From the NCBI GenBank assembly GCA_963753125.1, contig CAVWAU010000004.1:327200-391199 (forward strand): a DNA stretch of 64,000 nt, written 5' to 3'. The notes below the pieces were generated by a model. It searched no databases. It saw only the letters and a list, made by a program, of their open reading frames with translations, and was not told where the DNA came from. Source of the DNA: an uncultured Chloroflexia bacterium (GTDB taxonomy: Bacteria > Chloroflexota > Limnocylindria > QHBO01). Shown one piece after another: positions 3,440 through 33,684 of the stretch; positions within the stretch are counted from its first letter, which is position 1, and each line of letters begins with the position of its first letter. The position numbers were made by a program, and so were the translations under genes.

Positions 3440-3511
3440 GGGGTGGATACGAGACGGGTTGCGGGCGTATCGTACGCCGCAGGCGGCATCGGTCTTGCTT
3501 GGAGGGGTGAC

Positions 3512-3943
3512 GTGGCCGGACTGGTCTGGGTCAGCGATCGCGAGCCGGGCGTGCGCGAGCTCTTCGGCGAGCTGCTTCCCGAGGCCGAGATCCTGACGCC
3601 CGACGAGCTCGATGCGCGGAGCGCGCTCGGGCAGCGGCCCGACGCCCTGGTGATCGACGGCACCCAGCTCATGGAGCTCCCCGCACGCCGGCGCAGCGCC
3701 ATCCTCGGACTCCCGCGCGTCCTCATCTGCACCGGAATGATGCTGGCGTCGATGCCGATGCGGATCGTGCGCGGCCCCAACGTCGCCGTGCTCGCCAAGC
3801 CGTTCTGCATCGAGGACCTCGAGGCGGCGCTCGACTGGCTGCGCGGCACGCCCTCGGCCTTCCCGCCGGCCAGCGGCCAGCTGGCTTCGATGCTCCAGAA
3901 GCCGCGATCGCGCCGCTCCGGCCCGACCATCCCGATCGCCTGA
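3512..3943 (+). CDS. Stand-alone response-regulator receiver-like protein
   Basis: GTG at 3512 lies 7 nt after GGAGG (3501-3505). LVWVSDRE..., DALVIDG (candidate phospho-acceptor Asp), LAKPF (conserved Lys-Pro). No output domain. Confidence 0.6.
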
Positions 3944-3948
3944 GCCGG

Positions 3949-4993
<1,045 letters not shown>

Positions 4994-5503: not shown

Positions 5504-6022
5504 ATGAGTGCCACCCGAATCCTCCTGGCGCCTGGCGCATCGGGGAACCCGAAGCAGCTCGCGCCGCACGCGTCCGGCCTCCGGGCGCGCGGCTACGAGG
5601 TTGAGATCGTCAGCCTCCCGAAGGGCACCGTCGAGCGCGCAATGCCGGTGTACCGAGAGGCGATCGCCAAGGAGTCCTCCGCGCTGGTCACCGGCGGCCA
5701 GTCGTTCGGCGGACGGGTCGCCACGCTGCTGGCGGCGGAGGACCCGCCGAAGGCGCTCGTCCTCTTCGCCTACCCGCTGCACGCGCCCGGCCGCCACGAG
5801 GCGTGGCGCGAGCGCACCGCCCACTGGCCCCGGATCACGTGCCCGGTCCTGCTGCTGTCGGGCGAGTCGGACCCGTTCGCGCGGATCGACCTGCTGCGCG
5901 AGGCCGTCGGCCAGCTCTCGGCGGCGACGCTGGTGACGTTCCCCGGCGTCGGCCATGGCGTCGATCCCGTCATCGACGCCGCACTCGACGAGGCCGACGC
6001 CTTCCTGCGGGCAAATACCTGA
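5504..6022 (+). CDS. Alpha/beta hydrolase (short, dienelactone-hydrolase/KANL3-like)
   Basis: 172 aa. GGQSFGGRV nucleophile elbow, later SGESDPF and GVGHG. Confidence 0.8.
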
Positions 6023-6060
6023 CCGATCCTGTCGCCAATTCGAGCGTATCCTCGGCACCA

Positions 6061-7030
6061 ATGCGCGCGTCGCGGCTCGTCCAGCTGCTCCTGCTCCTCC
6101 AGGCGCGCGGCCGGACCACGGCCGCGGTGCTGGCGACCGAGCTCGAGGTCAGCGAGCGCACCATCCATCGGGACGTCGATGCGCTCAGCGCCGCGGGCGT
6201 GCCGATCTACGCCGAGCGCGGCCCGCACGGCGGCATCCAGCTGGTCGACGGCTATCGGACGCGGCTGACGGGGCTCACCGCGGACGAGGCCGAGGCCCTC
6301 TTCCTCTCCGGCATGCCCGGGCCGGCCGCGGAGCTCGGGCTCGGCACCGTGGTCGCCGCGGCACGTCTCAAGGTCCTCGCCTCGCTCCCCGGCGAGCTCC
6401 GTGCCCGCGCCTCGCGGCTCGTGGAGCGCTTCCACCTCGACGCGACGGCGTGGTTCAGCTCGAGCGAGCCGGTCCCCCACCTCGCCACGCTGGCCGACGC
6501 CGTGTGGGAGGCGCGGCCGGCGACCGTGCGCTACCGGCGCGGCGACCAGAGCGTCGAGCGCCAGCTCGAGCCCATCGGCCTGGTGCTCAAGGCCGGCGTC
6601 TGGTACCTCGTGGCGCGGACCGAGGAGCAGATCCGAACGTATCGCGTGTCGCGCATCACCGAGGTATCGGTCAGCGAGGCGGCGTTCGAGCGCCCGCCCG
6701 ACTTCGACCTGCCCGCCTACTGGACGGAGTCCACGGCCACGTACGAGCAGGGCCGCGCCGCGAGTCACCGTCACCGTGCGCATCGATCCGGCCGTGGTCG
6801 GGGTGCTCGCCGACGCGATCGGGATGCAGGCGGTCCGCGACGCCGAGCGGCTGGTCGTCGAGGATCCCGACGGCTGGCTCCACCTGCGCGTGACCGCCGA
6901 CTGGCCGGAGGAGGTGCCGGGGAGGCTCATCGGCCTGGGGAGCCGTGCCGAGATCCTCGACCCGCCCGAGGTGCGGGAGCGCGCCATCACGCTCGCCCGC
7001 CGCATGCTCGAGCGCCACGGAGAACTCTAG
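6061..7030 (+). pseudogene. YafY-type HTH + WYL-domain transcriptional regulator, one frame change
   Basis: [38 protein letters not shown] (HTH_11), then IGLVLKAGVWYLVA (WYL). Frame 1 reads to about 6750 (YWTESTATYEQG). The protein continues in frame 2 (VTVTVRIDPAVVGVLADAIG...RMLERHGEL) to the stop at 7030. Confidence 0.8.
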
Positions 7031-7044
7031 GCCGGCTCAGAGGC

Positions 7045-7488
7045 TCACACGGCGCTGAAGAGCGTCGAGATGGCGGCGGTGACCAGCCAGATCACGAAGG
7101 CGACCATGCCGACGAGGATGGCGACCACCAGCAGCAGCGCGACCCAGTCGTCGCGCGTCGAGCGATCCGGCTCCTCGAGCCAGCGCCGCGCCATCGCGAG
7201 GTTTCGGGTGTTGGCCTTGAACCAGAGGTCGAACGCGTCGCCGGCGAACGGGATCGCGCCGACGACGAGGTCGATCGCCGAGTTGACGAGCATGCGCACC
7301 ACGACGATCCGCGGCAGGCCCATCCGCGAGGCCCGCCAGACGACGAAGAGGCCGAGCCCTGCGCTGACGAGGTCGCCGAAGCCGGGGACGAGGCCGATGA
7401 TCGCGTCCGCGCCGAACCGCCGCCCCGGAAGGAACGGTACCGGGATGCTGTTGTCGAGCAGCCAGGCGAGCGTCTCGACCTCGGCCAT
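7045..7488 (-). CDS. DUF4112-like small membrane protein
   Basis: 147 aa from ATG 7488. LDNSIPVPFLPGRRFGADAIIGLVPGFGDLV...AIPFAGDAFDLWFKANTRN. The longer listed ORF (to 7914) is Arg/Ala-rich upstream of this Met. Confidence 0.75.
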   Translation of the reverse strand: MAEVETLAWLLDNSIPVPFLPGRRFGADAIIGLVPGFGDLVSAGLGLFVVWRASRMGLPRIVVVRMLVNSAIDLVVGAIPFAGDAFDLWFKANTRNLAMARRWLEEPDRSTRDDWVALLLVVAILVGMVAFVIWLVTAAISTLFSAV

Positions 7489-14873: not shown

Positions 14874-15413
14874 TCAGTTGAGGGAGCCGTTCCCGCCGGA
14901 GAGGCAGAAGTGGCCGGTCGGCTCGAGTGGCTGGCCGCAGAACGGGCATGGCGGCCTCCCGCCCGAGAGCAGCGCCTCGGCACGCGCGACGAACCGGCGG
15001 GCATCGGCAACGTCGATTCGCACGCGCAGCAGGTCGGGACCATCCTCCGCGTCATCGGGCAGCTCGAGGTAATCGCCGTCCTCGGTCGGCGTCTGGGCCT
15101 CGACGACGATCGCCTCGTTGGGCGCGTCCCAGGCCAGCGCCATGGCACCGACACGAAAGAGCTCCACGACCGGCTCCTCGAGCCCGCGCTCGTCGGCGGC
15201 CGCGCTGCCATCGGGCGCCTCGACCGCGTTGAGCAGGTCATCCATCCGTTCAGCGAGGGCGGCGACCTGGACCTTCTCCAGGCCAACGCTCACCAGCGAG
15301 CCACCCTTGCGGGCCTGGAGGTAGAAGGCGCGTTCGCCGGGATCGCCCACCGTGCCGGCCACGAACCGATCGGGATCGTCGAAGATGAAGAGCCGTCGCG
15401 TCATCTGAGCCAT
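14874..15413 (-). CDS. DUF3090 family protein
   Basis: FDDPDRFVAGTVGDPGERAFYLQA...C-terminal CPFCGQPLEPTGHFC. Start is ATG 15413 or 15404. Confidence 0.85.
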   Translation of the reverse strand: MAQMTRRLFIFDDPDRFVAGTVGDPGERAFYLQARKGGSLVSVGLEKVQVAALAERMDDLLNAVEAPDGSAAADERGLEEPVVELFRVGAMALAWDAPNEAIVVEAQTPTEDGDYLELPDDAEDGPDLLRVRIDVADARRFVARAEALLSGGRPPCPFCGQPLEPTGHFCLSGGNGSLN

Positions 15414-15484
15414 GCTACCCGCTCGCGGGTCCCGTAGAGTGACGGTGCCCATGAGCACCATCGCACGGGTCGCCGACTAGACCG

Positions 15485-16063
15485 ATGCGAGAGCGCTTCC
15501 TGCCGAGGCGCGCGCGTTCGATGGCGCGCCGGCCGGGCGAGGGCGAGCGCGTCCCGCTCTCCCCGCGGGCGAGGATGCTCGCGGGCTGGCTCGCGGCACT
15601 GCTGCTCGTGCTCGGCATCGCCGGGGCGGTGCGGCTGCTTGGCGAGAGCAGCGATGAGGCTGCCACCGTGCCGAGCCCCTCGGGCGCAGAAGGAGCGTCA
15701 CTGCTGCCGATCGTGTTCGGCACGGAACTCACCGCCGAACGCGTCGTTCCGGTCGAGGCGCGGACGACGAGCTTCGAGCGCGAGATGACCTTCGCCTACG
15801 CCGTCGACGGCGGCGAGCCGGCCGAGACGATCTACGTCGAGGTGGAGCGCACGGACGGCGGGACGCTCGAGACGGTCCAGGAGCCGATCGACGCGCAGCC
15901 GATCCCGGAGGCGCCCGCGCTCATCGGCTTCACCGTGCCGAGCACGAACCTGCTCGACGCGTGGGGGCCGGGAGCCTACGTCATGCGCATCTACCTCGAG
16001 CCCGGCAGCGCGCCGATCGCGGAGGGTCGGTTCGTGCTGGTCGAGGCGGCGCCGAGCCCTTGA
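15485..16063 (+). CDS. Hypothetical membrane-anchored protein
   Basis: 192-aa ORF with one TM (LAGWLAALLLVLGIAGAV), then a beta-rich extracytoplasmic region. Start uncertain (15485, 15521 or 15575). Confidence 0.5.
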   Translation: MRERFLPRRARSMARRPGEGERVPLSPRARMLAGWLAALLLVLGIAGAVRLLGESSDEAATVPSPSGAEGASLLPIVFGTELTAERVVPVEARTTSFEREMTFAYAVDGGEPAETIYVEVERTDGGTLETVQEPIDAQPIPEAPALIGFTVPSTNLLDAWGPGAYVMRIYLEPGSAPIAEGRFVLVEAAPSP

Positions 16064-16189: not shown

Positions 16190-17491
16190 TCAATTGACCG
16201 TGAGCGCCTCGCTGGTGAGCTCGTAGGCACCGCGGTGGTCGCCGGCCGCGGCACGCAGGTCGGCCCATTCGCGCAGCACTTCCCGCAGCCGGTTCGGCGC
16301 GCGGCTGGCGCGGGCAACGCGAGCGGCTTCGGCGAATCGAACCTCGGCCTCTTCCCCGCGGTCGGCGCGGCGGAGGGCGCGCGCCTCGGTGAGCATCGCC
16401 ATCAGGCCGCCGAATTCGTTTCCGCTGCGCTCGGCGAATTCGCGCGCGCGCTCCGCCAGACGCAACGCGCGATCGATGTCGCCCTCGGCCAGCGCGACCT
16501 GGGCCTCGGTGTCGACCACCGCCGCCATCCAGCGCTCGTCGCCGGTCTCCTCGATCTGGCGCCGCGCATCGGCGGCCAGCTCGCGGGCCCGGTCGACCTG
16601 GCCGGTGGCCAGGAAGGCGAGCGCCAGGTCGTTCTCGATGCGTGCCGACTCGAAGATCGCTCCCGCGGCGCGGTACAGCGCCATGCCCTGCGTCCCGGCG
16701 CGGATGGCGGCCTCGTAGTCGCCGACCTCGCGGTAGTTGATGGCGAGGTTGAAGAGGAACGCCGCCCGGCGCCGATCGTCGAGATCGGCGGACAGCCCGC
16801 GCGCCTCCTCGAGGTACGACAGCGCGCGTGACGCCTGCCCGGCCCGCGACTCGACAGCCGCGAGCGAGGTGAGCAGCCGCATCTCGAAGTCGGGCTCGAC
16901 GCGCAGACCGCCGCGAACCTGCTCGAGGAGCGCCGCCAGGATGCTTCGCGCGTCGACCTCGTTGTCCGACTGGTAGAGGCCGTAGGCGAGCCAGTAACGC
17001 GCAAGGGCCGCATCGGCAATGCGACCGGCATCGGCGTAGATGCGCGCCGCCTCGGATGCGGCGGCGACGGCATCCTTGCCGCGATCCAGGCGCGCGGCGG
17101 CCTCGGCCAGCCCGCGGAGCAGGTCGACCCGGGTCGCGTCGTCGGTCGCATCGGCCAGGAGGCTCTCGTAGCCGTCGGCGGCCGCCTGCCAGTCCCCTGC
17201 CGCGAGGCGCATGTCGACCTCGAGCCGGGTCCAGGCCGGATGGCCCTCGTCGATGAAGTGGCTGGCGGGCAGTCCGAGCCGATCGGAGAGGTAGCGCAGG
17301 GCAACCATCGAGGGCCGAGCGATGCCGGTCTCGAGCGCGCTCACATAGGCCTTGGTGTACCGATCGCCGGCGAGCTGCTGCTGGGTCAGTCCCGCACGAT
17401 GACGCGCCTCGCGCAGGCGCTGACCGATGTGCTGCGCGAGCGCCCGATCCTTGTCGGTCGTGGCGCGTGCGCCGGTCCGGGTGCGTGGCAT
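16190..17491 (-). CDS. XRE-family HTH transcriptional regulator with a long TPR-like superhelical domain
   Basis: Intact 433 aa. N-terminal IGQRLREARHRAGLTQQQLAG...YVSALETGIARPSMVALRYLSDRLGL (HTH_3/31). The remaining roughly 350 aa are Ala/Leu/Arg-rich helical repeats (AEAAARLDRGKDAVAAASEAARIY..., LAINYREVGDYEAAIRAG...). Candidate -10 TAAACT lies 6 nt before the ATG (leaderless). Confidence 0.85.
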   Translation of the reverse strand: MPRTRTGARATTDKDRALAQHIGQRLREARHRAGLTQQQLAGDRYTKAYVSALETGIARPSMVALRYLSDRLGLPASHFIDEGHPAWTRLEVDMRLAAGDWQAAADGYESLLADATDDATRVDLLRGLAEAAARLDRGKDAVAAASEAARIYADAGRIADAALARYWLAYGLYQSDNEVDARSILAALLEQVRGGLRVEPDFEMRLLTSLAAVESRAGQASRALSYLEEARGLSADLDDRRRAAFLFNLAINYREVGDYEAAIRAGTQGMALYRAAGAIFESARIENDLALAFLATGQVDRARELAADARRQIEETGDERWMAAVVDTEAQVALAEGDIDRALRLAERAREFAERSGNEFGGLMAMLTEARALRRADRGEEAEVRFAEAARVARASRAPNRLREVLREWADLRAAAGDHRGAYELTSEALTVN

Positions 17492-17622
17492 GAGCGCAGT
17501 TTACACACGCTGGCAAGCCTCACTTGACCCGAGCGTCGACGAAAGTACTGCGCCGCCCGATGCGCGCCGGGACCGATGGGTCATTGCCCGCTGGTCCCAT
17601 CGGGGCGACGGTGGGTTCAGCG

Positions 17623-17645
17623 GCTCGACGCCCAACCAGTCGAGC
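17623..17645 (+). promoter_or_regulatory. Palindrome in the regulator / small-ORF intergenic region (candidate operator or 5'-UTR hairpin)
   Basis: GCTCGAC-N9-GTCGAGC, ending 8 nt before the small ORF's SD. A second repeat is CCGATGGG (17573-80) / CCCATCGG (17596-603). Confidence 0.3.
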
Positions 17646-17668
17646 TCACACCAGGGAGTCCATGACAG

Positions 17669-17794
17669 ATGCGCACCAGCCGAATCGTCCGCACGCTCGT
17701 GGTGGCCGGCACGACCGCGGCGCTGACCCTGCTCAGCATTGCCACGACCGTGATGGCTGCGACCGGCGGAGGCGACTTCCCGCGCTTCAGGTAA
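17669..17794 (+). CDS. Unlisted 41-aa ORF: candidate secreted pro-peptide MRTSRIVRTLVVAGTTAALTLLSIATTVMAATGGGDFPRFR
   Basis: ATG 17669 is 10 nt after AGGGAG (17653-58). n-region with 3 Arg, 20-aa hydrophobic core, VMA|A cleavage-like site, 11-aa tail. About 90% G/C at third codon positions (36 of 40). TAA 17792-94, then a hairpin 21 nt later. Absent from the ORF track because it is under 60 aa. Confidence 0.5.
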   Translation: MRTSRIVRTLVVAGTTAALTLLSIATTVMAATGGGDFPRFR

Positions 17795-17815
17795 GCCGGA
17801 GCCAATCCACACACC

Positions 17816-17840
17816 GAAGGGGGCCCGATGGGGCCCCTTC
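17816..17840. terminator. GC hairpin shared by the small ORF (+) and the Nfu gene (-)
   Basis: GAAGGGGGCCC-gatg-GGGGCCCCTTC (10 pairs with one bulged G), between stops 17794 (+) and 17857 (-). Confidence 0.65.
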
Positions 17841-17856
17841 CTCGTGTCCGCCAGGG

Positions 17857-18450
17857 TCAGTGCTGGTGGCCGTAGTACGGGTTGGTGCCCGCGGCGTGGT
17901 CGGTGGCGTCGACGATGGCGGTCACCTGCGGCACCGCGGCTCGGATCGCGGCCTCGACGCCGTGCTTGAGCGTGACGTCGACGGCCGCACAGCCCTGGCA
18001 GCCGCCGCCGAAGCGCAGGTAGGCCGCGCCGTCGCGCACCTCGACCAGGGTCACCATCCCGCCGTGTGAGCCCACGCCAGGGTTGATCTGGCTGTCGAGC
18101 ACTTCCTGCACGGCCTTCTCCAGCGGGTCCTGCCAGCCCTCGTTGGGGTTGTCGATGCGCAGGCCGCCACCGGTGATGCCGGCGTCGAGGTCGACCGTCG
18201 AGCCGGCCAGGTCGGCAGCGGTGACCGGATCGAGCGCAACGTTCAGGCCGTCCGCGTCCACGACGAGGTCGTCATCGGTTCGGTCGCGCGGGTCCTCGAG
18301 CGCGATCTCGTAGCGGAAGCGCGGGCCCTCCTTGGCGAGGATGCGGATGCGGAGCACCGCGTCGGGGAAGTCGTTGAAGTCGCGGACGCCGTCGATCTTA
18401 TCGCGGGCCGCCGGGGTCACGGTGAGCAGCTTCTCGATCATCGGCACCAT
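17857..18450 (-). CDS. NfuA-like Fe-S cluster carrier (IscA/HesB-like N-domain + Nfu C-domain)
   Basis: 197 aa. C-terminal LDSQINPGVGSHGGMVTLVEV...RFGGGCQGCAAVDVTLKHGVE (Nfu CxxC). Confidence 0.85.
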   Translation of the reverse strand: MVPMIEKLLTVTPAARDKIDGVRDFNDFPDAVLRIRILAKEGPRFRYEIALEDPRDRTDDDLVVDADGLNVALDPVTAADLAGSTVDLDAGITGGGLRIDNPNEGWQDPLEKAVQEVLDSQINPGVGSHGGMVTLVEVRDGAAYLRFGGGCQGCAAVDVTLKHGVEAAIRAAVPQVTAIVDATDHAAGTNPYYGHQH

Positions 18451-18459
18451 CGTAGTCCT

Positions 18460-21066
18460 TCAGCCGAGAGGCGGCAGGGCCTGGTTGTCAGTGAGCACGC
18501 CGGCGAACGGGTCGCCGGCGGTCCGGATGCGCTCCATGGCGTCGCGGATGGTCCACCGGTCCGGCCGCAGCCCTGGGTCGTCGAGCTCCTCCCAGGTGAT
18601 CGGCATGCTCACCGGGGCGCCGGGCGCGGGCCGGGTGCTGTACGGGGCGACGAGCGTCTTGTTGATGACGTTCTGGGTGTAGTCGAGCCGTGCCTTGCCC
18701 TTGCGAGCGCGCTTCGCCCACTCCCAGCTGACGAGGTCCGGGACCGATGCGCCGACGGCGCGTGACAGACCCTCGACCCAGTCGCGGGTGTCCTCGAAGG
18801 TCGGCCCGCGCGCGATGCCGATCCAGATCTGGATGCCCCGCTTGCCGGTGACCTTGGGATGGCCGATGACGCGGAGGTGTTCGAGCGCGGTCCGATACAG
18901 GCGTGCCAGGACGAGGAGCTCCTCCCAGGTCGTATCGGGCCCGGGATCGATGTCGATGAGGGCGTACGACGGTCGGTCCGGCGCGTCGATCGGGCTCGTC
19001 CACGGGTGGAGCTCGACCGCGGCCTCCTGCGCCAGCCAGGCCAGCGTGGCGGCCGAGTCGACCACCGCGTACTCCTTCGGCCCCTCCTCGCGATGGTGGT
19101 ATGTCCAGCGCTTGATCCACTCTGGCGCGTGACCGGGCAGGTCCTTCTGCCAGAAGCCCTTCTGCTCGTTCCCGTTCGGGTAGCGCTGGACTGTCAGGCC
19201 GTGAGTATCGAGGTACGGCACCAGCGTCGGGGCGACCTCGACGTGGTAGCGCAGCAGGTCGCGCTTGGTGACGGGAGCCTCACCCTCGCGGGCGGTGAAG
19301 AGGACCTTCTCCAGGTTCGTGACCCGGATCTCGTGGCCGTCGACGACCCAGGTCCCCTCCTTCTCGATCGCCTCGAGCACGGCGATGGTGTCGGTCGCGT
19401 CCGCAGCGGGCGTTGCGGATGGCATCGGATCGGGAGGATTGGCGCGCTCGGCCTCGGCGGTCGCTCGCTCGGTGGGCACCTCGCGCTCGCGTAGCACCGT
19501 GCGCGGATCGCGATCGGGCTCGAAGCCCTTGAACGCCGCCTGGCGCAGCAGGTCGTCGGCCGTCCATTCGGCGAACTCGACGCGAATCACGATCTCCGGC
19601 TCGACCCAGCGCGCCCCGCGCAGGCGCGGGGCGGGATCGATCACCGAGTCCGGTCGCTCGATCTCCTCGAGCCGCTTTCGGAGCGAGCTGCGCGTTCGGG
19701 CGGCGAGGCCGCTGCCGACCTGTCCGGCGTGCACCCACTCCTTGCCGGAGCGGACGGCCAGGATGAGCGAGCCGAGATCGGCTGCGCTCCCCTGCCCGGG
19801 CAGCCAGCCGACGACGACCACCTCCTGCTCGCTGCGGACTTTGAGCTTCAGCCACGACTTGCTCCGCCGGTCCGGCTCGTACGGGGAGTGGCGCAGCTTG
19901 GCGACGATCCCCTCCAGCTCCTGGGCACGTGCCGCCGCGAAGAACGCCTCCCCGTCGCCCTCGACGTGGCTGGCGTAGCGGACGAGCGGGTGCGGGCGCA
20001 GGCGGCCGCGCAGGAGCCGCTTGCGCTCCTCCAGGGGTACGGCCAGTAACGACTGCCCATCGAGGTGGAGCAGGTCGAAGGCCTGGTAGACGACATCGGC
20101 CGGTATGTCGCGGCGCTTGCCGCCGGGCGTGCGCCAGGTGCGGATGCCGGTGTGATCCTGGAGCAGGCTGAACCGGGGTCGCCCGTGCTCGTCGAGCGCG
20201 ACCACCTCGCCGTCGACGATCGCCTCGCGAGCGTCGATCCACCCCGTTGCATCGGCAAGGTCCGGGAAGTAGGTCGCGGCGTCCTGTCGGCGACGAGTCC
20301 AGAGCCGAGTCCCGCCGTCGCGCACGACCGCCTCGACCCGGTAGCCGTCCCACTTGACCTCGAACAGCCAGTCGGGGTCCGTGAACGGGTGCGTCGCCAG
20401 CGTGGCGCTCATGGGCGGGATGAAGTCGGGCATCGTTGCGGTGCGAGCTGCCGACAGGTCCACCTCGCCCGGTGGCCGCGGCGGGTCGGCCGTGAAGCGC
20501 GGCGCGACGCCATCGCGGACCTCGTCGTTCGTGCGTCCGGTCTTGACGCTCGCCGGGTGGTCCTCCGCGTCCCATCCGCCGACGGCGGCCTCGTCCTTCT
20601 TCTTGATCAGCAGCCAGCGTTCGCGGCCGTCGTCGTCATCGGTCCGGACGATCGTGTATCGGCCATGCAGGCGCTCGCCGTGGAGGATGAACTTGACCTC
20701 GCCCTTGCGCAGGCCCGTGCGTGGCGAGGGCTCGTCCGGCTCGGGCTCGAAGATTCCCCAGTCCCAGACGATGACGTCGCCGCCGCCGTACTCGTTCGCC
20801 GGGATGACTCCCTCGAACGGGAGGTACTCGATCGGATGATCCTCGGTGCGCATTGCCAACCGGCGGGCCTTCGGATCGAGGGTCGGGCCCTTCGGCACCG
20901 CCCAGCTGACGAGTACGCCGTCGATCTCGAGGCGGAAGTCGTAGTGGAGAGCCGTCGCCCGGTGACGCTGGACGGTGAAGCGCCCGCTCCGCTCGACGAC
21001 GTCCGCGGGTGCCGGCTCGGGGGTCCTCCCGAAGTCGCGCTTGCGCCGATATTCCTCCAGCGGCAT
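18460..21066 (-). CDS. ligD: Multidomain ATP-dependent DNA ligase LigD (phosphoesterase - ligase - polymerase/primase order)
   Basis: 868 aa from ATG 21066. PE: FTVQRHRATALHYDFRLE...WAVPKGP. Ligase motif I EVKWDGYR, then GIVAK, WLKLK. Pol: VQRYPNG...ALIDIDPG...KVTGKRGIQIW...DYTQN...APYSTRP. Confidence 0.9.
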   Translation of the reverse strand: MPLEEYRRKRDFGRTPEPAPADVVERSGRFTVQRHRATALHYDFRLEIDGVLVSWAVPKGPTLDPKARRLAMRTEDHPIEYLPFEGVIPANEYGGGDVIVWDWGIFEPEPDEPSPRTGLRKGEVKFILHGERLHGRYTIVRTDDDDGRERWLLIKKKDEAAVGGWDAEDHPASVKTGRTNDEVRDGVAPRFTADPPRPPGEVDLSAARTATMPDFIPPMSATLATHPFTDPDWLFEVKWDGYRVEAVVRDGGTRLWTRRRQDAATYFPDLADATGWIDAREAIVDGEVVALDEHGRPRFSLLQDHTGIRTWRTPGGKRRDIPADVVYQAFDLLHLDGQSLLAVPLEERKRLLRGRLRPHPLVRYASHVEGDGEAFFAAARAQELEGIVAKLRHSPYEPDRRSKSWLKLKVRSEQEVVVVGWLPGQGSAADLGSLILAVRSGKEWVHAGQVGSGLAARTRSSLRKRLEEIERPDSVIDPAPRLRGARWVEPEIVIRVEFAEWTADDLLRQAAFKGFEPDRDPRTVLREREVPTERATAEAERANPPDPMPSATPAADATDTIAVLEAIEKEGTWVVDGHEIRVTNLEKVLFTAREGEAPVTKRDLLRYHVEVAPTLVPYLDTHGLTVQRYPNGNEQKGFWQKDLPGHAPEWIKRWTYHHREEGPKEYAVVDSAATLAWLAQEAAVELHPWTSPIDAPDRPSYALIDIDPGPDTTWEELLVLARLYRTALEHLRVIGHPKVTGKRGIQIWIGIARGPTFEDTRDWVEGLSRAVGASVPDLVSWEWAKRARKGKARLDYTQNVINKTLVAPYSTRPAPGAPVSMPITWEELDDPGLRPDRWTIRDAMERIRTAGDPFAGVLTDNQALPPLG

Positions 21067-21716
21067 CAGGGATGCTCCGGCAGCTCGAGCTCGTCGAGTG
21101 TGCCGATGACCTCCGATGCCCCGGCCTCGCGAAGCGCGTCCTCCCCCACCGCAGCGCCCGCCGTGACGCCGATGGCGCGCATCCCCGCCGCGACCGCCGA
21201 GCGCATGTCCCACGTCGAGTCGCCCACGTACCAGCATGCGTCGGGGGCGACGCCGAGCTGGCGCGCCGCCAGCTGGAGCAGGTCGGGAGCGGGCTTCGCG
21301 TGCTCGACCGCGCTGCCGTCGACGATCCGTGGCCGATGCCGCAGCCCGAGCGCCCCGACGGATGCGGCCACCTGCTCGGCACGCGACGACGTCGCGATGG
21401 CCCAGGTCACCCCGTCGGCGTCGAGTCGCTCGAGCAGCTCACGTGCGCCGGGCAGCGGCTGCGGATCGCGGTTGCGCTCGTCGAACAGCTCGCCCGCCCG
21501 CCGGTCGACGTCTTCAGTCGGGCCGCCATCGCCCATCACTTCCGCCGCGAGGCGGCGACCGTCCATCCCGATCATCGGCTCGAGCCGCTCGCGGCTGACG
21601 GCGATGCCGCGCTCGGCGAACGTCGCCTGCCAGGCCTCGATCCGTGCCGGGACCGTGTCGACCAGCGTGCCGTCGAGGTCGAAGACGATTGCGTCGGGGC
21701 GCGAAGCAGAGCGCAT
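21066..21716 (-). CDS. HAD-superfamily hydrolase (subfamily IA, PGM/phosphatase-like)
   Basis: IVFDLDGTLVDT (motif I), ATSS (II), K...VGDSTWDM (III/IV). The stop overlaps the ligD ATG by 1 nt (TGATG). Confidence 0.85.
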   Translation of the reverse strand: MRSASRPDAIVFDLDGTLVDTVPARIEAWQATFAERGIAVSRERLEPMIGMDGRRLAAEVMGDGGPTEDVDRRAGELFDERNRDPQPLPGARELLERLDADGVTWAIATSSRAEQVAASVGALGLRHRPRIVDGSAVEHAKPAPDLLQLAARQLGVAPDACWYVGDSTWDMRSAVAAGMRAIGVTAGAAVGEDALREAGASEVIGTLDELELPEHP

Positions 21717-31920: not shown

Positions 31921-32661
31921 CTAGTCCCTGACCGCGAACCTCGCCCGATAGGACTGCACGGCGGCCTCGATCAGCTGCTCGTCGGACCGAGGGGCGTTGC
32001 CCGGCCCCTCGGCGAGCTGCTCGCGAACCCGGGCCGCGAGTCGCGCCGCGAGCTGCCGCCTCGCATTCACCTCGAGGCTGGAGCGGCGGGCGAGGAAGGT
32101 CCGCAGCACGGTGTAGTCGTGCGCGGTCAGCCGCGACGTGTCGAGGGTGGGAGCACCTGCCTGGGACGGGACGCGCGAGAGCACCTGCGGTGCCGGCAGC
32201 TTCCGCTCGCGGATCACGATCGTTCCGGCCGCGAGGTCGCCGAGCCGCTGGTAGCGCGGCGTGACGACCATCGAGATCAGGGCCACGAATGGCAGCAGCA
32301 TCACCTCGACGATGCGGACGAGGTTGCGGACCGCGACCGGCGCGAGGCCGGCCGGCTGCCCATCGGTGCGAACCACCCGGATGCCCTGCAGCCGCTTTCC
32401 CGGGGTCTGGCCGCGACGCAGCAGCTCGAAGGCCGGGAAGTAGAGCCACAGGACGACGAACCCGAGCAGGCTGAGGCCGACCGCCTCGACGGTGCCCCCC
32501 ACCCCGTCGAGCACGAAGACGAAGAAGAACGGCAGCAGCACGACGACCTGGATGAGGGTGTCGACGATCAGCGCGATCGACCTCGAGCCGATCCCGGCAA
32601 CGTCGGCTCTGAGCTGGACCGCCTCCGGCGTGATCACGGTCCCCGCGTAGTCCGGCCTCAT
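31921..32661 (-). CDS. RDD-family membrane protein
   Basis: 246 aa from ATG 32661. ...GSRSIALIVDTLIQ..., RRGQTPGKRLQGIRVV, GDLAAGTIVI. C-terminal soluble extension. Confidence 0.8.
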   Translation of the reverse strand: MRPDYAGTVITPEAVQLRADVAGIGSRSIALIVDTLIQVVVLLPFFFVFVLDGVGGTVEAVGLSLLGFVVLWLYFPAFELLRRGQTPGKRLQGIRVVRTDGQPAGLAPVAVRNLVRIVEVMLLPFVALISMVVTPRYQRLGDLAAGTIVIRERKLPAPQVLSRVPSQAGAPTLDTSRLTAHDYTVLRTFLARRSSLEVNARRQLAARLAARVREQLAEGPGNAPRSDEQLIEAAVQSYRARFAVRD

Positions 32662-32703
32662 CGCGCCTCCGTGTCCCTGCTTCGCTCCTACACTGCGCTC
32701 AGC

Positions 32704-33684
32704 GTGGACCTCGATTCTTACATCGCCAAGCACCGAGGTGAATGGCACGCGCTCGAGAGCGCAGTGGGCCGTTCGTACCGTGGCTCGCGTGCCGGCGCCG
32801 AGGTCACCGAGATGATCCGCCTCTACCTTCGCGCGTCGTCGCACCTGGCCGAGGTCCAGTCGCGGTACCACGATCCGGCACTGGTCGACTACCTCAACGG
32901 CCTGGTGGCGCGGGCGCATGCCGCGATCTACGGCACCGCGCCGCGGTCGTTCCGAGCGGCCATCGCGCTGTTCGGGGCCCGATACCGAGCGGCGATCCGG
33001 CGAACCGCGCCGTACATCCTGGTCGTGGCGGCGGTGCTGTTCGGGGTGATGCTGGCCACAAACGCGTGGGTGGCGACCTCGGCGGAGGCCCAGGCCGGCG
33101 TCATCCCGCCCGCCGCGCGCGACGCCGTGGAGCGCGTCGACGACACGGTCACCGACGTCGAGCTGGGCGGCGCCGAGATGTCGACGTTCATCTTCCAGAA
33201 CAACGTCCAGGTCGCCTTCCTGGCCTTCGCGCTCGGCATCACGCTGGGGATCGGAACGCTGTTCGTGATCGTGCAGAACGCCGCGTTCATCGGCCTCCTC
33301 GCCGGCGCGTTCCAGGCTGCCGACAAGGCGCACCTGTTCTGGGCGCTCGTGCTCCCCCACGGATTCCTGGAGCTCATGGCGATCTGCATCGCGGGGGGTG
33401 CCGGGCTGCGCATCGGCTGGTCGCTGGTGGACCCCGGCGATCGGTTTCGTCTCACCGCCCTGGCAGAGGAGTCACGGGATGCGGTGCTGGTCGTCATCGG
33501 TGTCATTCCCGCCTTCGGGATCGCGGCGCTGATCGAGGGGTTCGTGACCGGCCGGACGGGCATGCCGATCCTCGAGGTCGCCCTCGGTGCGGTGGTGGCG
33601 GTCGGCTATCTCGCGTTCCTCTTCGGCTGGCGCCGCTCTCTGCCTGCCAGCCTGCCCGTGCCTACAGCCGCCCGAGCGCCTTGA
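32704..33684 (+). CDS. Stage II sporulation protein M-like (DUF95) membrane protein
   Basis: GTG 32704 (VDLDSYIAKHRGEWHALE...). IFQNNVQVAF, LPHGFLELMAICIAGGAG, EGFVT. Confidence 0.75.
   Translation: MDLDSYIAKHRGEWHALESAVGRSYRGSRAGAEVTEMIRLYLRASSHLAEVQSRYHDPALVDYLNGLVARAHAAIYGTAPRSFRAAIALFGARYRAAIRRTAPYILVVAAVLFGVMLATNAWVATSAEAQAGVIPPAARDAVERVDDTVTDVELGGAEMSTFIFQNNVQVAFLAFALGITLGIGTLFVIVQNAAFIGLLAGAFQAADKAHLFWALVLPHGFLELMAICIAGGAGLRIGWSLVDPGDRFRLTALAEESRDAVLVVIGVIPAFGIAALIEGFVTGRTGMPILEVALGAVVAVGYLAFLFGWRRSLPASLPVPTAARAP

Follow-up and report, generated by a model that had tools for sequence, protein, structure and literature searches.

A conserved short open reading frame coupled to an HTH/TPR regulator in Candidatus Limnocylindria: a possible peptide/receptor module with RRNPP-like logic

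The closest described systems to the gene pair reported here are the RRNPP/RRNPPA systems (PlcR-PapR, NprR-NprX, Rgg-SHP, ComR-ComS, PrgX-cCF10/iCF10, Rap-Phr and AimR-AimP), in which a receptor works with a peptide encoded by a small neighboring gene. In the literature that we searched in full text, these systems are described only in Bacillota, their plasmids and their phages, and no paper links Limnocylindria or Chloroflexota with RRNPP systems. In agreement with this, the RRNPP_detector survey presents peptide systems of the RRNPP kind as a Bacillota trait (PMC10075063). Here, we analyze a stretch of 64,000 nucleotides (the window) of contig CAVWAU010000004.1, in which the gene for a regulator with an XRE-type helix-turn-helix (HTH) and a tetratricopeptide repeat (TPR) superhelix is divergently oriented to a short open reading frame (ORF) of 41 codons. 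A first-pass annotation of the window, which was based on the letters alone, had suggested RRNPP logic for this pair in an Actinomycetota-like genome. The Actinomycetota label is wrong and the source genome is from Chloroflexota (Candidatus Limnocylindria): regulator homologues in a collection of 5.8 billion proteins and in one-genome-per-species GTDB contigs are from metagenome-assembled genomes (MAGs) of Candidatus Limnocylindria, Chloroflexota or "uncultured Chloroflexia", and in the NCBI taxonomy Candidatus Limnocylindria is a class within Chloroflexota.

The short ORF is a real gene under selection. In an ortholog set of 80 species loci, in which the regulators are 63-97% identical to the window regulator, a homologous short ORF is open and in frame in all 77 loci with enough upstream DNA, and in these loci it is divergent with its ATG 165-193 nt from the regulator ATG. 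A ribosome-binding site (RBS; AGGAG, GGGAG or the close variants GGAG and GAGGA) is present ~5-10 nt before the start in nearly all of 78 loci. With two exceptions, namely one locus whose start was placed at 33 codons and the 12-codon forms (see below), the ortholog short ORFs are 37-43 codons long, and their length differences are whole codons only. At the window locus, the G+C content is 0.57, 0.63 and 0.90 at the three codon positions, which is a coding signature for a genome with a G+C content of 71% and agrees with the ~90% G/C at third positions that had been reported for this ORF. At the invariant residues R8, A13, A17, G35 and P39, codon positions one and two have zero entropy while the third position has an entropy of 0.97-1.7 bits, and each residue is encoded by three to four synonymous codons (four each for G35 and P39). 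Because third positions vary while positions one and two are fixed, selection is on the peptide rather than on an RNA or DNA element, and this pattern rules out conservation at the RNA or DNA level. Similarly, the presence in 77/77 loci, the synonymous-only change at invariant residues and the whole-codon length changes rule out a chance ORF. The pooled Nei-Gojobori ratio of non-synonymous to synonymous change (dN/dS) is 0.49 for the short ORF, 0.39 for the tail core and ~0.18 for the regulator, and these values are to be read with the caveat that codon bias itself restricts synonymous change in the short ORF; a weaker constraint on the short ORF than on the regulator is as expected for a signal peptide. 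Thus, an intact frame in relatives, which the first-pass annotation had singled out as a check on this gene, was found throughout.

The same annotation had described the short ORF as unannotated. This is correct insofar as the gene is absent from the ORF list of the window; among public gene calls from MAGs, its homologues form 375 protein clusters, all of which are named "hypothetical protein" and have no Pfam domain. The window short ORF has no Pfam or NCBIfam match. An Rfam scan of positions 17400-17900 returned no known RNA family and a single meaningless match (E=6.5). An ATG further upstream (MGHCPLV...) was considered as the start of a conserved upstream ORF and rejected, since this ATG becomes ACG or GTC in relatives.

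The coupling of the short ORF to the regulator is specific and family-wide. In a profile-free exhaustive search of 1.84 billion representative proteins, we obtained 120 clusters at E<=1e-30, including ~30 full-length homologues with 41-56% identity. A metagenome scan seeded by distant homologues gave 80 loci with regulators 43-84% identical to that of the window, and the taxonomy of these loci is based on the few named homologues, which are Candidatus Limnocylindria/Chloroflexota MAGs. At loci with regulators less than 55% identical, no LigD, NfuA or DUF3090 neighbors are present within the ~2.5-kb flanks. The neighbors of distant loci are diverse: among nine adjoining genes and one located farther away (at L098), eight of the ten have Pfam matches, i.e. 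a cupin, a methyltransferase, an EAL/PAS protein, a histidine kinase, a metallo-beta-lactamase-fold protein, a GFO/IDH/MocA-type oxidoreductase, a SHOCT/PLDc_N protein and another TPR protein. Nevertheless, essentially every distant locus with enough flank (regulators 43-55% identical) has one adjoining short ORF of like design. Because distant loci in other contexts keep the short ORF, the objection that the adjacency is mere synteny is removed. The pairing also survives the loss of NfuA or of a 192-aa membrane protein that is encoded next to the regulator in the window.

Three arrangements of the two genes were found, with the short ORF always within 450 nt of the regulator gene. In 88 cases, the short ORF is divergent and near (~140-195 nt upstream of the regulator), with peptides ending in, for instance, ...ATALA/DHGPGTWP or ...SVLA/DNGKGSWP (the slash indicates the predicted cleavage). 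In 17 cases, it is divergent and far (~320-420 nt upstream; ...TALA/GSGGPPWPR, ...AVLA/GDGPGPFPR), and in 21 cases it is convergent and located 88-190 nt after the regulator stop codon (...ALA/DGQPPIPR, ...ALA/TTPPPPWP, ...ALA/DAPIPHWP). Thus, a short ORF with a predicted signal peptide recurs next to regulator homologues, both in the 77 orthologs and in distant loci, which was another check named in the first-pass annotation. A strict pattern that allows only ATG starts matched within 450 nt of the regulator in 55/79 loci; elsewhere, it gave no match outside the regulator, one spurious match inside it and none in a 366-kb reversed-sequence control. The 24 loci missed by the strict pattern comprise seven with 12-codon forms, six with ORFs caught by a looser scan (non-ATG start or missed by the pattern) and 11 others, of which eight have cut flanks and three (L105, L092 and L141) too little flank.

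The peptides share one layout. Long forms (33-50 codons) are present at 126 loci and represent 116 distinct sequences, in which signal peptides and cleavage sites were assigned by rule-based scoring. The order of basic N-terminus, hydrophobic stretch, AxA-like site and tail that had been noted for the window peptide is indeed present there, and all 116 distinct long peptides have a basic N-terminus followed by an uncharged hydrophobic stretch and a short conserved tail. At positions -3/-1, the scorer chose V-x-A or A-x-A in 111/116 peptides, with the predicted cleavage position being ambiguous by approximately two residues in some of them. In the signal region of the orthologs, Val at -3 and Ala/Gly at -1 are conserved, and R8, A13 and A17 are the invariant residues. 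The predicted tails are mostly 8-11 residues long, conserved and Gly/Pro-rich, and all 116 long peptides finish with [F/W/Y]-P (95) or [I/L/M/V]-P (20) followed by 0-5 residues, often R, K or H. A tail core of T/S-G-G-G-x-[F/W]-P is conserved and common to the 12-codon forms, and the tail sequence follows the regulator clade. We found neither paralogues nor more ORFs with the tail motif in the window.

In eight peptides (from L019, L047, L055, L057, L061, L079, L101 and L147), position +1 is a Cys (VMA/C, VAA/C or AMA/C). This lipobox-like arrangement suggests that the tail might be lipid-anchored in these lineages; as a reading for the family, a lipoprotein was rejected because it fits only this minority. 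A lasso-peptide or other precursor of a ribosomally synthesized and post-translationally modified peptide was also dropped, because the Asp is too near the putative core start and no maturation genes are present beside the window locus.

The strongest argument for an intracellular target of the peptide comes from a clade that lacks the signal peptide. On the regulator tree, a monophyletic clade of 13 species (L058, L060, L064, L066, L069, L070 and L072-L078) is nested among clades with long forms and has only a 12-codon ORF, MRSAHTGGGWPS or MRNAHTGGGWPS, at the same position (~170-213 nt upstream of the regulator on the opposite strand) and with the same RBS. Two further versions, MRTASCGGGWPR and MRRASTGGSWPS, are from seven metagenome contigs (L115, L110, L143, L144, L150, L123 and L136), and these also have exactly 12 codons and an RBS. 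The main 12-codon clade contains seven distinct coding sequences with five synonymous differences and one non-synonymous difference. The clade is derived from the long form by a deletion that drops the entire hydrophobic segment while keeping the starting M-R and the T-G-G-G-x-W-P tail. From these sequences, we infer that the tail is the functional part and able to act inside the cell. Because the tail is kept without a signal peptide, its target would be intracellular and, most plausibly, the TPR regulator.

The control region is conserved as well. In an alignment of 78 orthologous intergenic regions, the most conserved block (Table 1) has the consensus G.ACcga.GGGtcATTG (G.ACCGA.GGGTCATTG), and the window copy is the sole exact match to it in the window. 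This block is a candidate operator. The GGCAAG-type blocks next to it could be an upstream promoter-like element or binding sites of the regulator, and the GGCAAG-N6-TTGACC-type motif has a single occurrence in the window. No convincing operator motifs were found elsewhere in the window. In the promoter-like element for the short ORF transcript, the TTG is present in 77/78 loci and GAnnnT at a spacing of 17 nt in 72/78; a generic sigma-70 scan of the window did not call this element. At the regulator start, the TAnACT hexamer is at the same place in L001-L080 and there is no RBS; because this hexamer is only 6-9 nt from the ATG, the regulator mRNA is probably leaderless.

The palindrome GCTCGAC-N9-GTCGAGC, which is present where the first-pass annotation had seen it, was considered as an operator. 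Nearly all 78 leaders are predicted to form a stable hairpin here, with stem sequences that vary widely. Because the stem sequence changes while pairing is kept, and because the element is downstream of the promoter-like element, it is more likely to be an RNA stem-loop in the 5' untranslated region (5'-UTR) than an operator, and we have dropped the operator role. Two other candidates were rejected: an inverted repeat that surrounds the -35 (17573-17580 / 17596-17603) does not clearly exceed shuffles as an operator for the whole family, and a sigma-54 promoter (TGGCA...TTG) would have the wrong spacing.

In distant loci, the promoter of the short ORF is canonical (TTGAC/T, 17 nt, TAnnnT) and preceded by an AT-rich box, AATA[CG]TT[GA]A, which is present in 41/47 distant loci and has 59 occurrences in 733 kb overall. 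In each of the three arrangements, conserved boxes run directly into the -35 of the short ORF promoter. As a separate observation, of the 21 loci of convergent type, at least 11 have the AT-rich box (TAATAGTTGA) a second time beyond the short ORF, and in three of these that were looked at in detail the far-side box adjoins an inverted copy of a 14-16-nt motif, GAGTGGGCACTGGA, with the copies 200-260 bp apart. Such pairs could represent two operator-like sites and DNA looping.

A gene convergent to the short ORF lies 3' of it in all 80 orthologous loci, and unrelated genes take this place in distant loci. The GC-rich hairpin that had been reported to follow the short ORF is present, although it has no T-run and was not called by a simple terminator scan in the window; in many relatives, a hairpin with a T-run is directly 3' of the short ORF stop codon. 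Based on these relatives, the short ORF is likely to be transcribed alone and the hairpin to be a (bidirectional) terminator.

Based on these data, we suggest a model in which the two genes form a peptide/receptor module of Candidatus Limnocylindria with RRNPP-like logic, and we give this model an even chance. In this model, the short ORF would have a promoter and a terminator of its own and yield a transcript by itself, with a hairpin in the 5' region and a strong RBS. In most lineages, its product would be exported by Sec and cut by signal peptidase I after (A/V)-x-A, giving a Gly/Pro-rich peptide of 8-11 residues with an aromatic-Pro end with or without basic residues; in the window, this would be ATGGGDFPRFR with the core TGGGDFP. 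The peptide would then be re-imported, or in the 12-codon clade be made in the cytoplasm, and act as the ligand of the TPR superhelix of the adjacent regulator. Ligand binding would alter the action of the XRE-type HTH on the conserved boxes at the short ORF promoter and probably on other targets. In other words, the regulator would control at least the short ORF promoter, and the outcome would be an autoregulated signaling loop similar to those of RRNPP systems. It is from sequence that we infer export, the cleavage site, re-import, the peptide-TPR binding, the direction of regulation and the regulon.

The regulator has the features of a cytoplasmic receptor. Its sequence, which has neither a signal peptide nor a membrane segment, matches Pfam HTH_31 (E=2.9e-10; aa 22-76, nt 17264-17428) and TPR_12 (E=3.1e-12), and the HTH is followed by an all-helical TPR superhelix (~aa 86-433, nt 16193-17236) with about 9 TPR-like repeats; thus, it has the combination of HTH and TPR seen in cytoplasmic receptors of RRNPP type. 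An AlphaFold2 model based on a shallow alignment has a mean predicted local distance difference test (pLDDT) score of 81 and 21 helices, of which 18 are in the TPR part with scores of 85-97, while the HTH has low confidence. In a sequence search of the PDB, matches were restricted to the HTH, with PlcR as the best (E=4.5e-6) and ComR and RapH as weak matches. The peptide-binding function of its top structural matches (LGN/Pins) and the occurrence of Rap receptors among the Foldseek matches also speak for the model. One residue of note is N287 (motif E-N-D-L-A-L), which does not vary among the orthologues and is retained in the consensus of distant homologues; Y253, R264 and W409 are further invariant residues. 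In RRNPP receptors, a conserved Asn holds the peptide backbone, and the likeness of N287 to this residue is a lead only.

Several observations weigh against the model. Searches at E<=10 with the window regulator and two distant homologues gave no match to an RRNPP-specific Pfam family (RNPP_C, Rgg_C, AimR or Rap type), and the NCBIfam matches of the regulator are weak and generic with none being RRNPP-specific. Its structural matches are to generic TPR proteins: in a Foldseek search against the PDB, the top matches are LGN/Pins and designed TPRs (E ~1e-10), while RapI, RapF and the pLS20 Rap are at ranks 40-49 (E ~5e-7, TM ~0.5). Because RRNPP-specific profiles do not match and the structural matches are generic, we cannot file the regulator under the RRNPP families; membership of these families is not supported, and the logic is RRNPP-like on paper. 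Variation of the tail F/W versus regulator residues (e.g. T208M) revealed no clean covariation and is confounded by phylogeny. None of ten further window proteins that were scanned is an oligopeptide permease (Opp) protein, the rest of the window being unchecked. Close relatives have the locus in a single copy, in synteny and by vertical descent, and their tails change slowly, whereas RRNPP systems typically show pherotype turnover. Moreover, the loss of the signal peptide in one clade implies that cell-to-cell signaling is not essential to the module. Together, the single copy, the vertical inheritance, the slow tail among close relatives and the dispensable export argue against classical quorum sensing, and cell-autonomous feedback or sensing of diffusion or of the state of the envelope is possible. 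Finally, no adjacent short ORF was detected at one distant homologue (L161) and, therefore, the pairing rule is not absolute at the edge of the family. This homologue is at 6001-7275 of NCBI DASQFR010000318.1, which is labelled Thermoleophilaceae, and its flanks contain PhdYeFM-like antitoxin genes, Tad/T2SS-like secretion genes (T2SSE, T2SSF and CpaE-like), a gene for a Gln_deamidase_2 protein and an MbnB/TglH (DUF692) gene. Of the RRNPP logic proposed in the first-pass annotation, the conserved ORF, its specific coupling to the regulator and the layout of the peptide stand, while membership of the RRNPP protein families, as judged from profiles and Foldseek, and universal export do not.

Four other explanations were considered. 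In the first, the regulator merely controls the short ORF or has a control region in common with it, and the product of the short ORF is a secreted or surface peptide with a role in adhesion, as an antimicrobial or as a matrix signal rather than the ligand of the regulator. The predicted signal peptide of the long forms with its (A/V)-x-A site in 111/116 peptides, the conserved control region common to both genes and the position of the regulator outside the RRNPP families by profile search are all consistent with this explanation. We consider it unlikely, because the 12-codon forms have no export signal and yet are conserved, with an RBS and mostly synonymous change, because an unmodified Gly/Pro peptide of 8-11 residues is an unlikely effector, and because tail and regulator diversify together across the three gene arrangements. 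The 12-codon clade counts not only against an exclusively secreted effector but also against a peptide that stays in the membrane. In this second explanation, the short ORF product is an uncleaved small membrane protein (signal-anchor), which modulates a membrane partner or tethers or sequesters the regulator, with the tail as the interaction surface. Small membrane proteins such as MgrB and SafA feed back on regulators; moreover, the hydrophobic stretch has ~20 residues, and the invariant A13 and A17 form a small-xxx-small motif, which is unusual for a mere signal peptide. By contrast, (A/V)-x-A precedes the tail in 111 of the 116 distinct peptides, the positively charged N-terminus is predicted to orient the tail toward the outside, i.e. 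away from the cytoplasmic regulator, and the 12-codon clade has no membrane segment. A membrane-anchored modulator is therefore improbable.

An even lower probability is given to a cis-acting arrest or "monitoring substrate" peptide of the SecM, MifM, VemP or ApdA type, or an attenuation leader, in which ...G-x-[F/W]-P stalls the ribosome. The N-terminal signal/membrane segment and the conserved C-terminal Pro motif near the stop codon do resemble arrest peptides. Such a role is very unlikely because there is no downstream gene on the same strand to regulate, the next gene being convergent in all 80 orthologous loci; in addition, the distance from the Pro to the stop codon varies from 0 to 5 codons, and Rfam gave no known leader. 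Least probable and largely refuted is that the two genes are unrelated neighbors held together by conserved synteny: the LigD-(NfuA)-short ORF-regulator-DUF3090 block is intact in the 63-97% identical orthologues and co-occurrence there is not independent, but the pairing outlasts the loss of NfuA or the 192-aa protein as well as changed neighbors and orientation in distant homologues, and the strict pattern is absent elsewhere outside the regulator and in the reversed control.

The features of the window locus are listed in Table 1. The first-pass annotation had placed the regulator gene, the spacer, the short ORF and its AGGGAG correctly. The syntenic block LigD-(NfuA)-short ORF-regulator-DUF3090 is stable across the orthologous loci, with deeper clades lacking NfuA; the 192-aa membrane protein is recognizable in most orthologous loci, with 35-79% identity, and several clades have no detectable version of it. 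On eight contigs (L018, L020, L024, L027, L032, L053, L057 and L075), the Limnocylindria block LigD-NfuA-short ORF-regulator-DUF3090 is present under other MAG titles, i.e. Steroidobacteraceae, Binatia, Angelobacter and Methylomirabilota; these records with foreign labels are probably mis-binned or mislabelled. Elsewhere in the window of this Chloroflexota genome, positions 32119-33684 (+) encode a protein of 521 aa that contains a SpoIIM domain (stage II sporulation protein M).

Table 1. Positions of features at the window locus and of paired sites at three convergent-type loci
Feature	Position	Strand	Description
DUF3090 protein gene	14874-15461	-	
192-aa membrane protein gene	15485-16063	+	Single-pass, no Pfam match; convergent with regulator
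Regulator gene	16190-17491	-	433 aa; XRE-type HTH and TPR superhelix
Spacer	17492-17668		177 bp between regulator and short ORF
-10-like hexamer TAAACT (consensus TAnACT)	17498-17503	-	6 nt before regulator ATG (6-9 across family); AGT.TAC block conserved
GGCAAG-N6-TTGACC, 16 nt, TAC(TGC)	17512-17551	+	Conserved columns; family form GGCAAG-N6-TTGAC, 16-17 nt, TAC
ACCGATGGGTCATTG	17572-17586	+	Most conserved intergenic block; abuts/overlaps -35 TTG of short ORF promoter-like element
Promoter-like TTGCCC-N17-GACGGT	17584-17612	+	For short ORF transcript; family form TTGnnn-N17-GAnnnT
Stem-loop GCTCGAC-N9-GTCGAGC	17623-17645	+	Predicted; short ORF 5'-UTR
Shine-Dalgarno AGGGAG	17653-17658	+	10 nt before short ORF ATG
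Short ORF	17669-17794	+	41 codons, MRTSRIVRTLVVAGTTAALTLLSIATTVMAATGGGDFPRFR
Short ORF codons 1-30	17669-17758	+	Predicted Sec signal peptide: MRTSRIVR, hydrophobic core, VMA at -3 to -1
Short ORF codons 31-41 and stop	17759-17794	+	Predicted released peptide ATGGGDFPRFR
GC-rich hairpin	17816-17840	.	Between short ORF and convergent NfuA-like gene
NfuA-like Fe-S protein gene	17857-18450	-	Convergent with short ORF
LigD-like ligase gene (non-homologous end joining)	18460-21237	-	Fused, 925 aa; named from size and sequence reading
Paired box/motif sites, L103	3872-3890, 4095-4160		
Paired box/motif sites, L096	3885-3899 / 4108-4122		
Paired box/motif sites, L120	3276-3299 / 3499-3563		

The logic of the suggested module is known, and we rate the receptor/peptide family and the phylum as new. 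If the model is correct, it extends signaling logic of RRNPP type to another phylum and provides a first handle on cell-cell or self-signaling in the uncultured Candidatus Limnocylindria of soil and freshwater metagenomes. It would also make available many natural pairs of receptor and peptide (the loci examined encode 116 distinct peptides), and the variant without a signal peptide allows a direct test of how a secreted signal becomes an intracellular effector. Such tests are possible without cultivation by using recombinant regulator, synthetic peptides and the 177-bp control region. More broadly, we speculate that this is the first peptide-receptor system with RRNPP logic outside Bacillota, in which a large family of cytoplasmic HTH/TPR receptors throughout Limnocylindria, of independent or anciently related origin, have their own exported octa- to undecapeptides with aromatic-Pro ends, and in which one clade has "privatised" its signal as an intracellular peptide of 12 residues; this broader view is tentative, and we place it slightly below an even chance.

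Among small ORFs with known functions, the arrest peptides SecM, MifM, VemP and ApdA/ApdP are similar to the short ORF in having an N-terminal signal/membrane segment and a C-terminal Pro motif near the stop codon. However, each of them precedes, and shares a transcript with, the Sec/YidC gene under its control, while the short ORF is likely monocistronic and followed by a convergent gene. The best structural matches of the regulator, the TPRs of the LGN/Pins and Hop/PEX5 types, also form long superhelices, which bind extended or C-terminal peptides in their inner groove; by contrast, they are eukaryotic scaffolds without a DNA-binding domain, and the similarity is at the level of the fold only, with 15-20% identity. 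In Actinomycetota, which are also high-GC monoderms, XRE/DUF397 (WhiJ-BldB-like) pairs consist of an XRE regulator and an adjacent small protein, as in the Limnocylindria pair. However, these pairs have a regulator without TPR and a cytoplasmic DUF397 protein as the partner, while the short ORF has no Pfam match and a predicted signal peptide.

The design principles of the Limnocylindria pair are overall most similar to those of the RRNPP/RRNPPA systems. In both, the receptor combines an XRE-type HTH at the N-terminus with a TPR domain at the C-terminus; an adjoining gene of ~40 codons encodes a peptide in which a Sec-type signal peptide precedes a short active part at the C-terminal end (both predicted in the Limnocylindria pair); the genes are divergent or neighboring with a common control region; and the peptide co-diversifies with its receptor. 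In addition, PlcR is the best PDB sequence match of the window HTH. However, the Limnocylindria pair is in a Chloroflexota host, its regulator has no RRNPP-specific profile matches and finds Rap proteins only at Foldseek ranks 40-49, the receptor is larger with its about 9 TPR-like repeats, and the peptides are Gly/Pro-rich with aromatic-Pro ends. Furthermore, among close relatives, the pair is single-copy, syntenic and chromosomal and not a pherotype locus that varies or moves, and one clade has a 12-residue peptide without an export signal. In RRNPP systems, the mature signal is an unmodified peptide of 5-10 aa from the C-terminal part, which re-enters the cell through Opp and switches the receptor by binding to its TPR domain; for the Limnocylindria pair, a link to Opp is hypothetical. 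For the 12-codon clade, the nearest parallels are ComR-ComS and Rgg-SHP, in which very short peptide genes without a classical signal peptide lie beside the receptor gene, and for ComS of Streptococcus mutans that is not exported, an action inside the cell has been proposed. In contrast to SHP and ComS, which are hydrophobic, exported by PptAB and processed by Eep, the 12-residue peptide of Limnocylindria is polar and Gly-rich and has no evident exporter.

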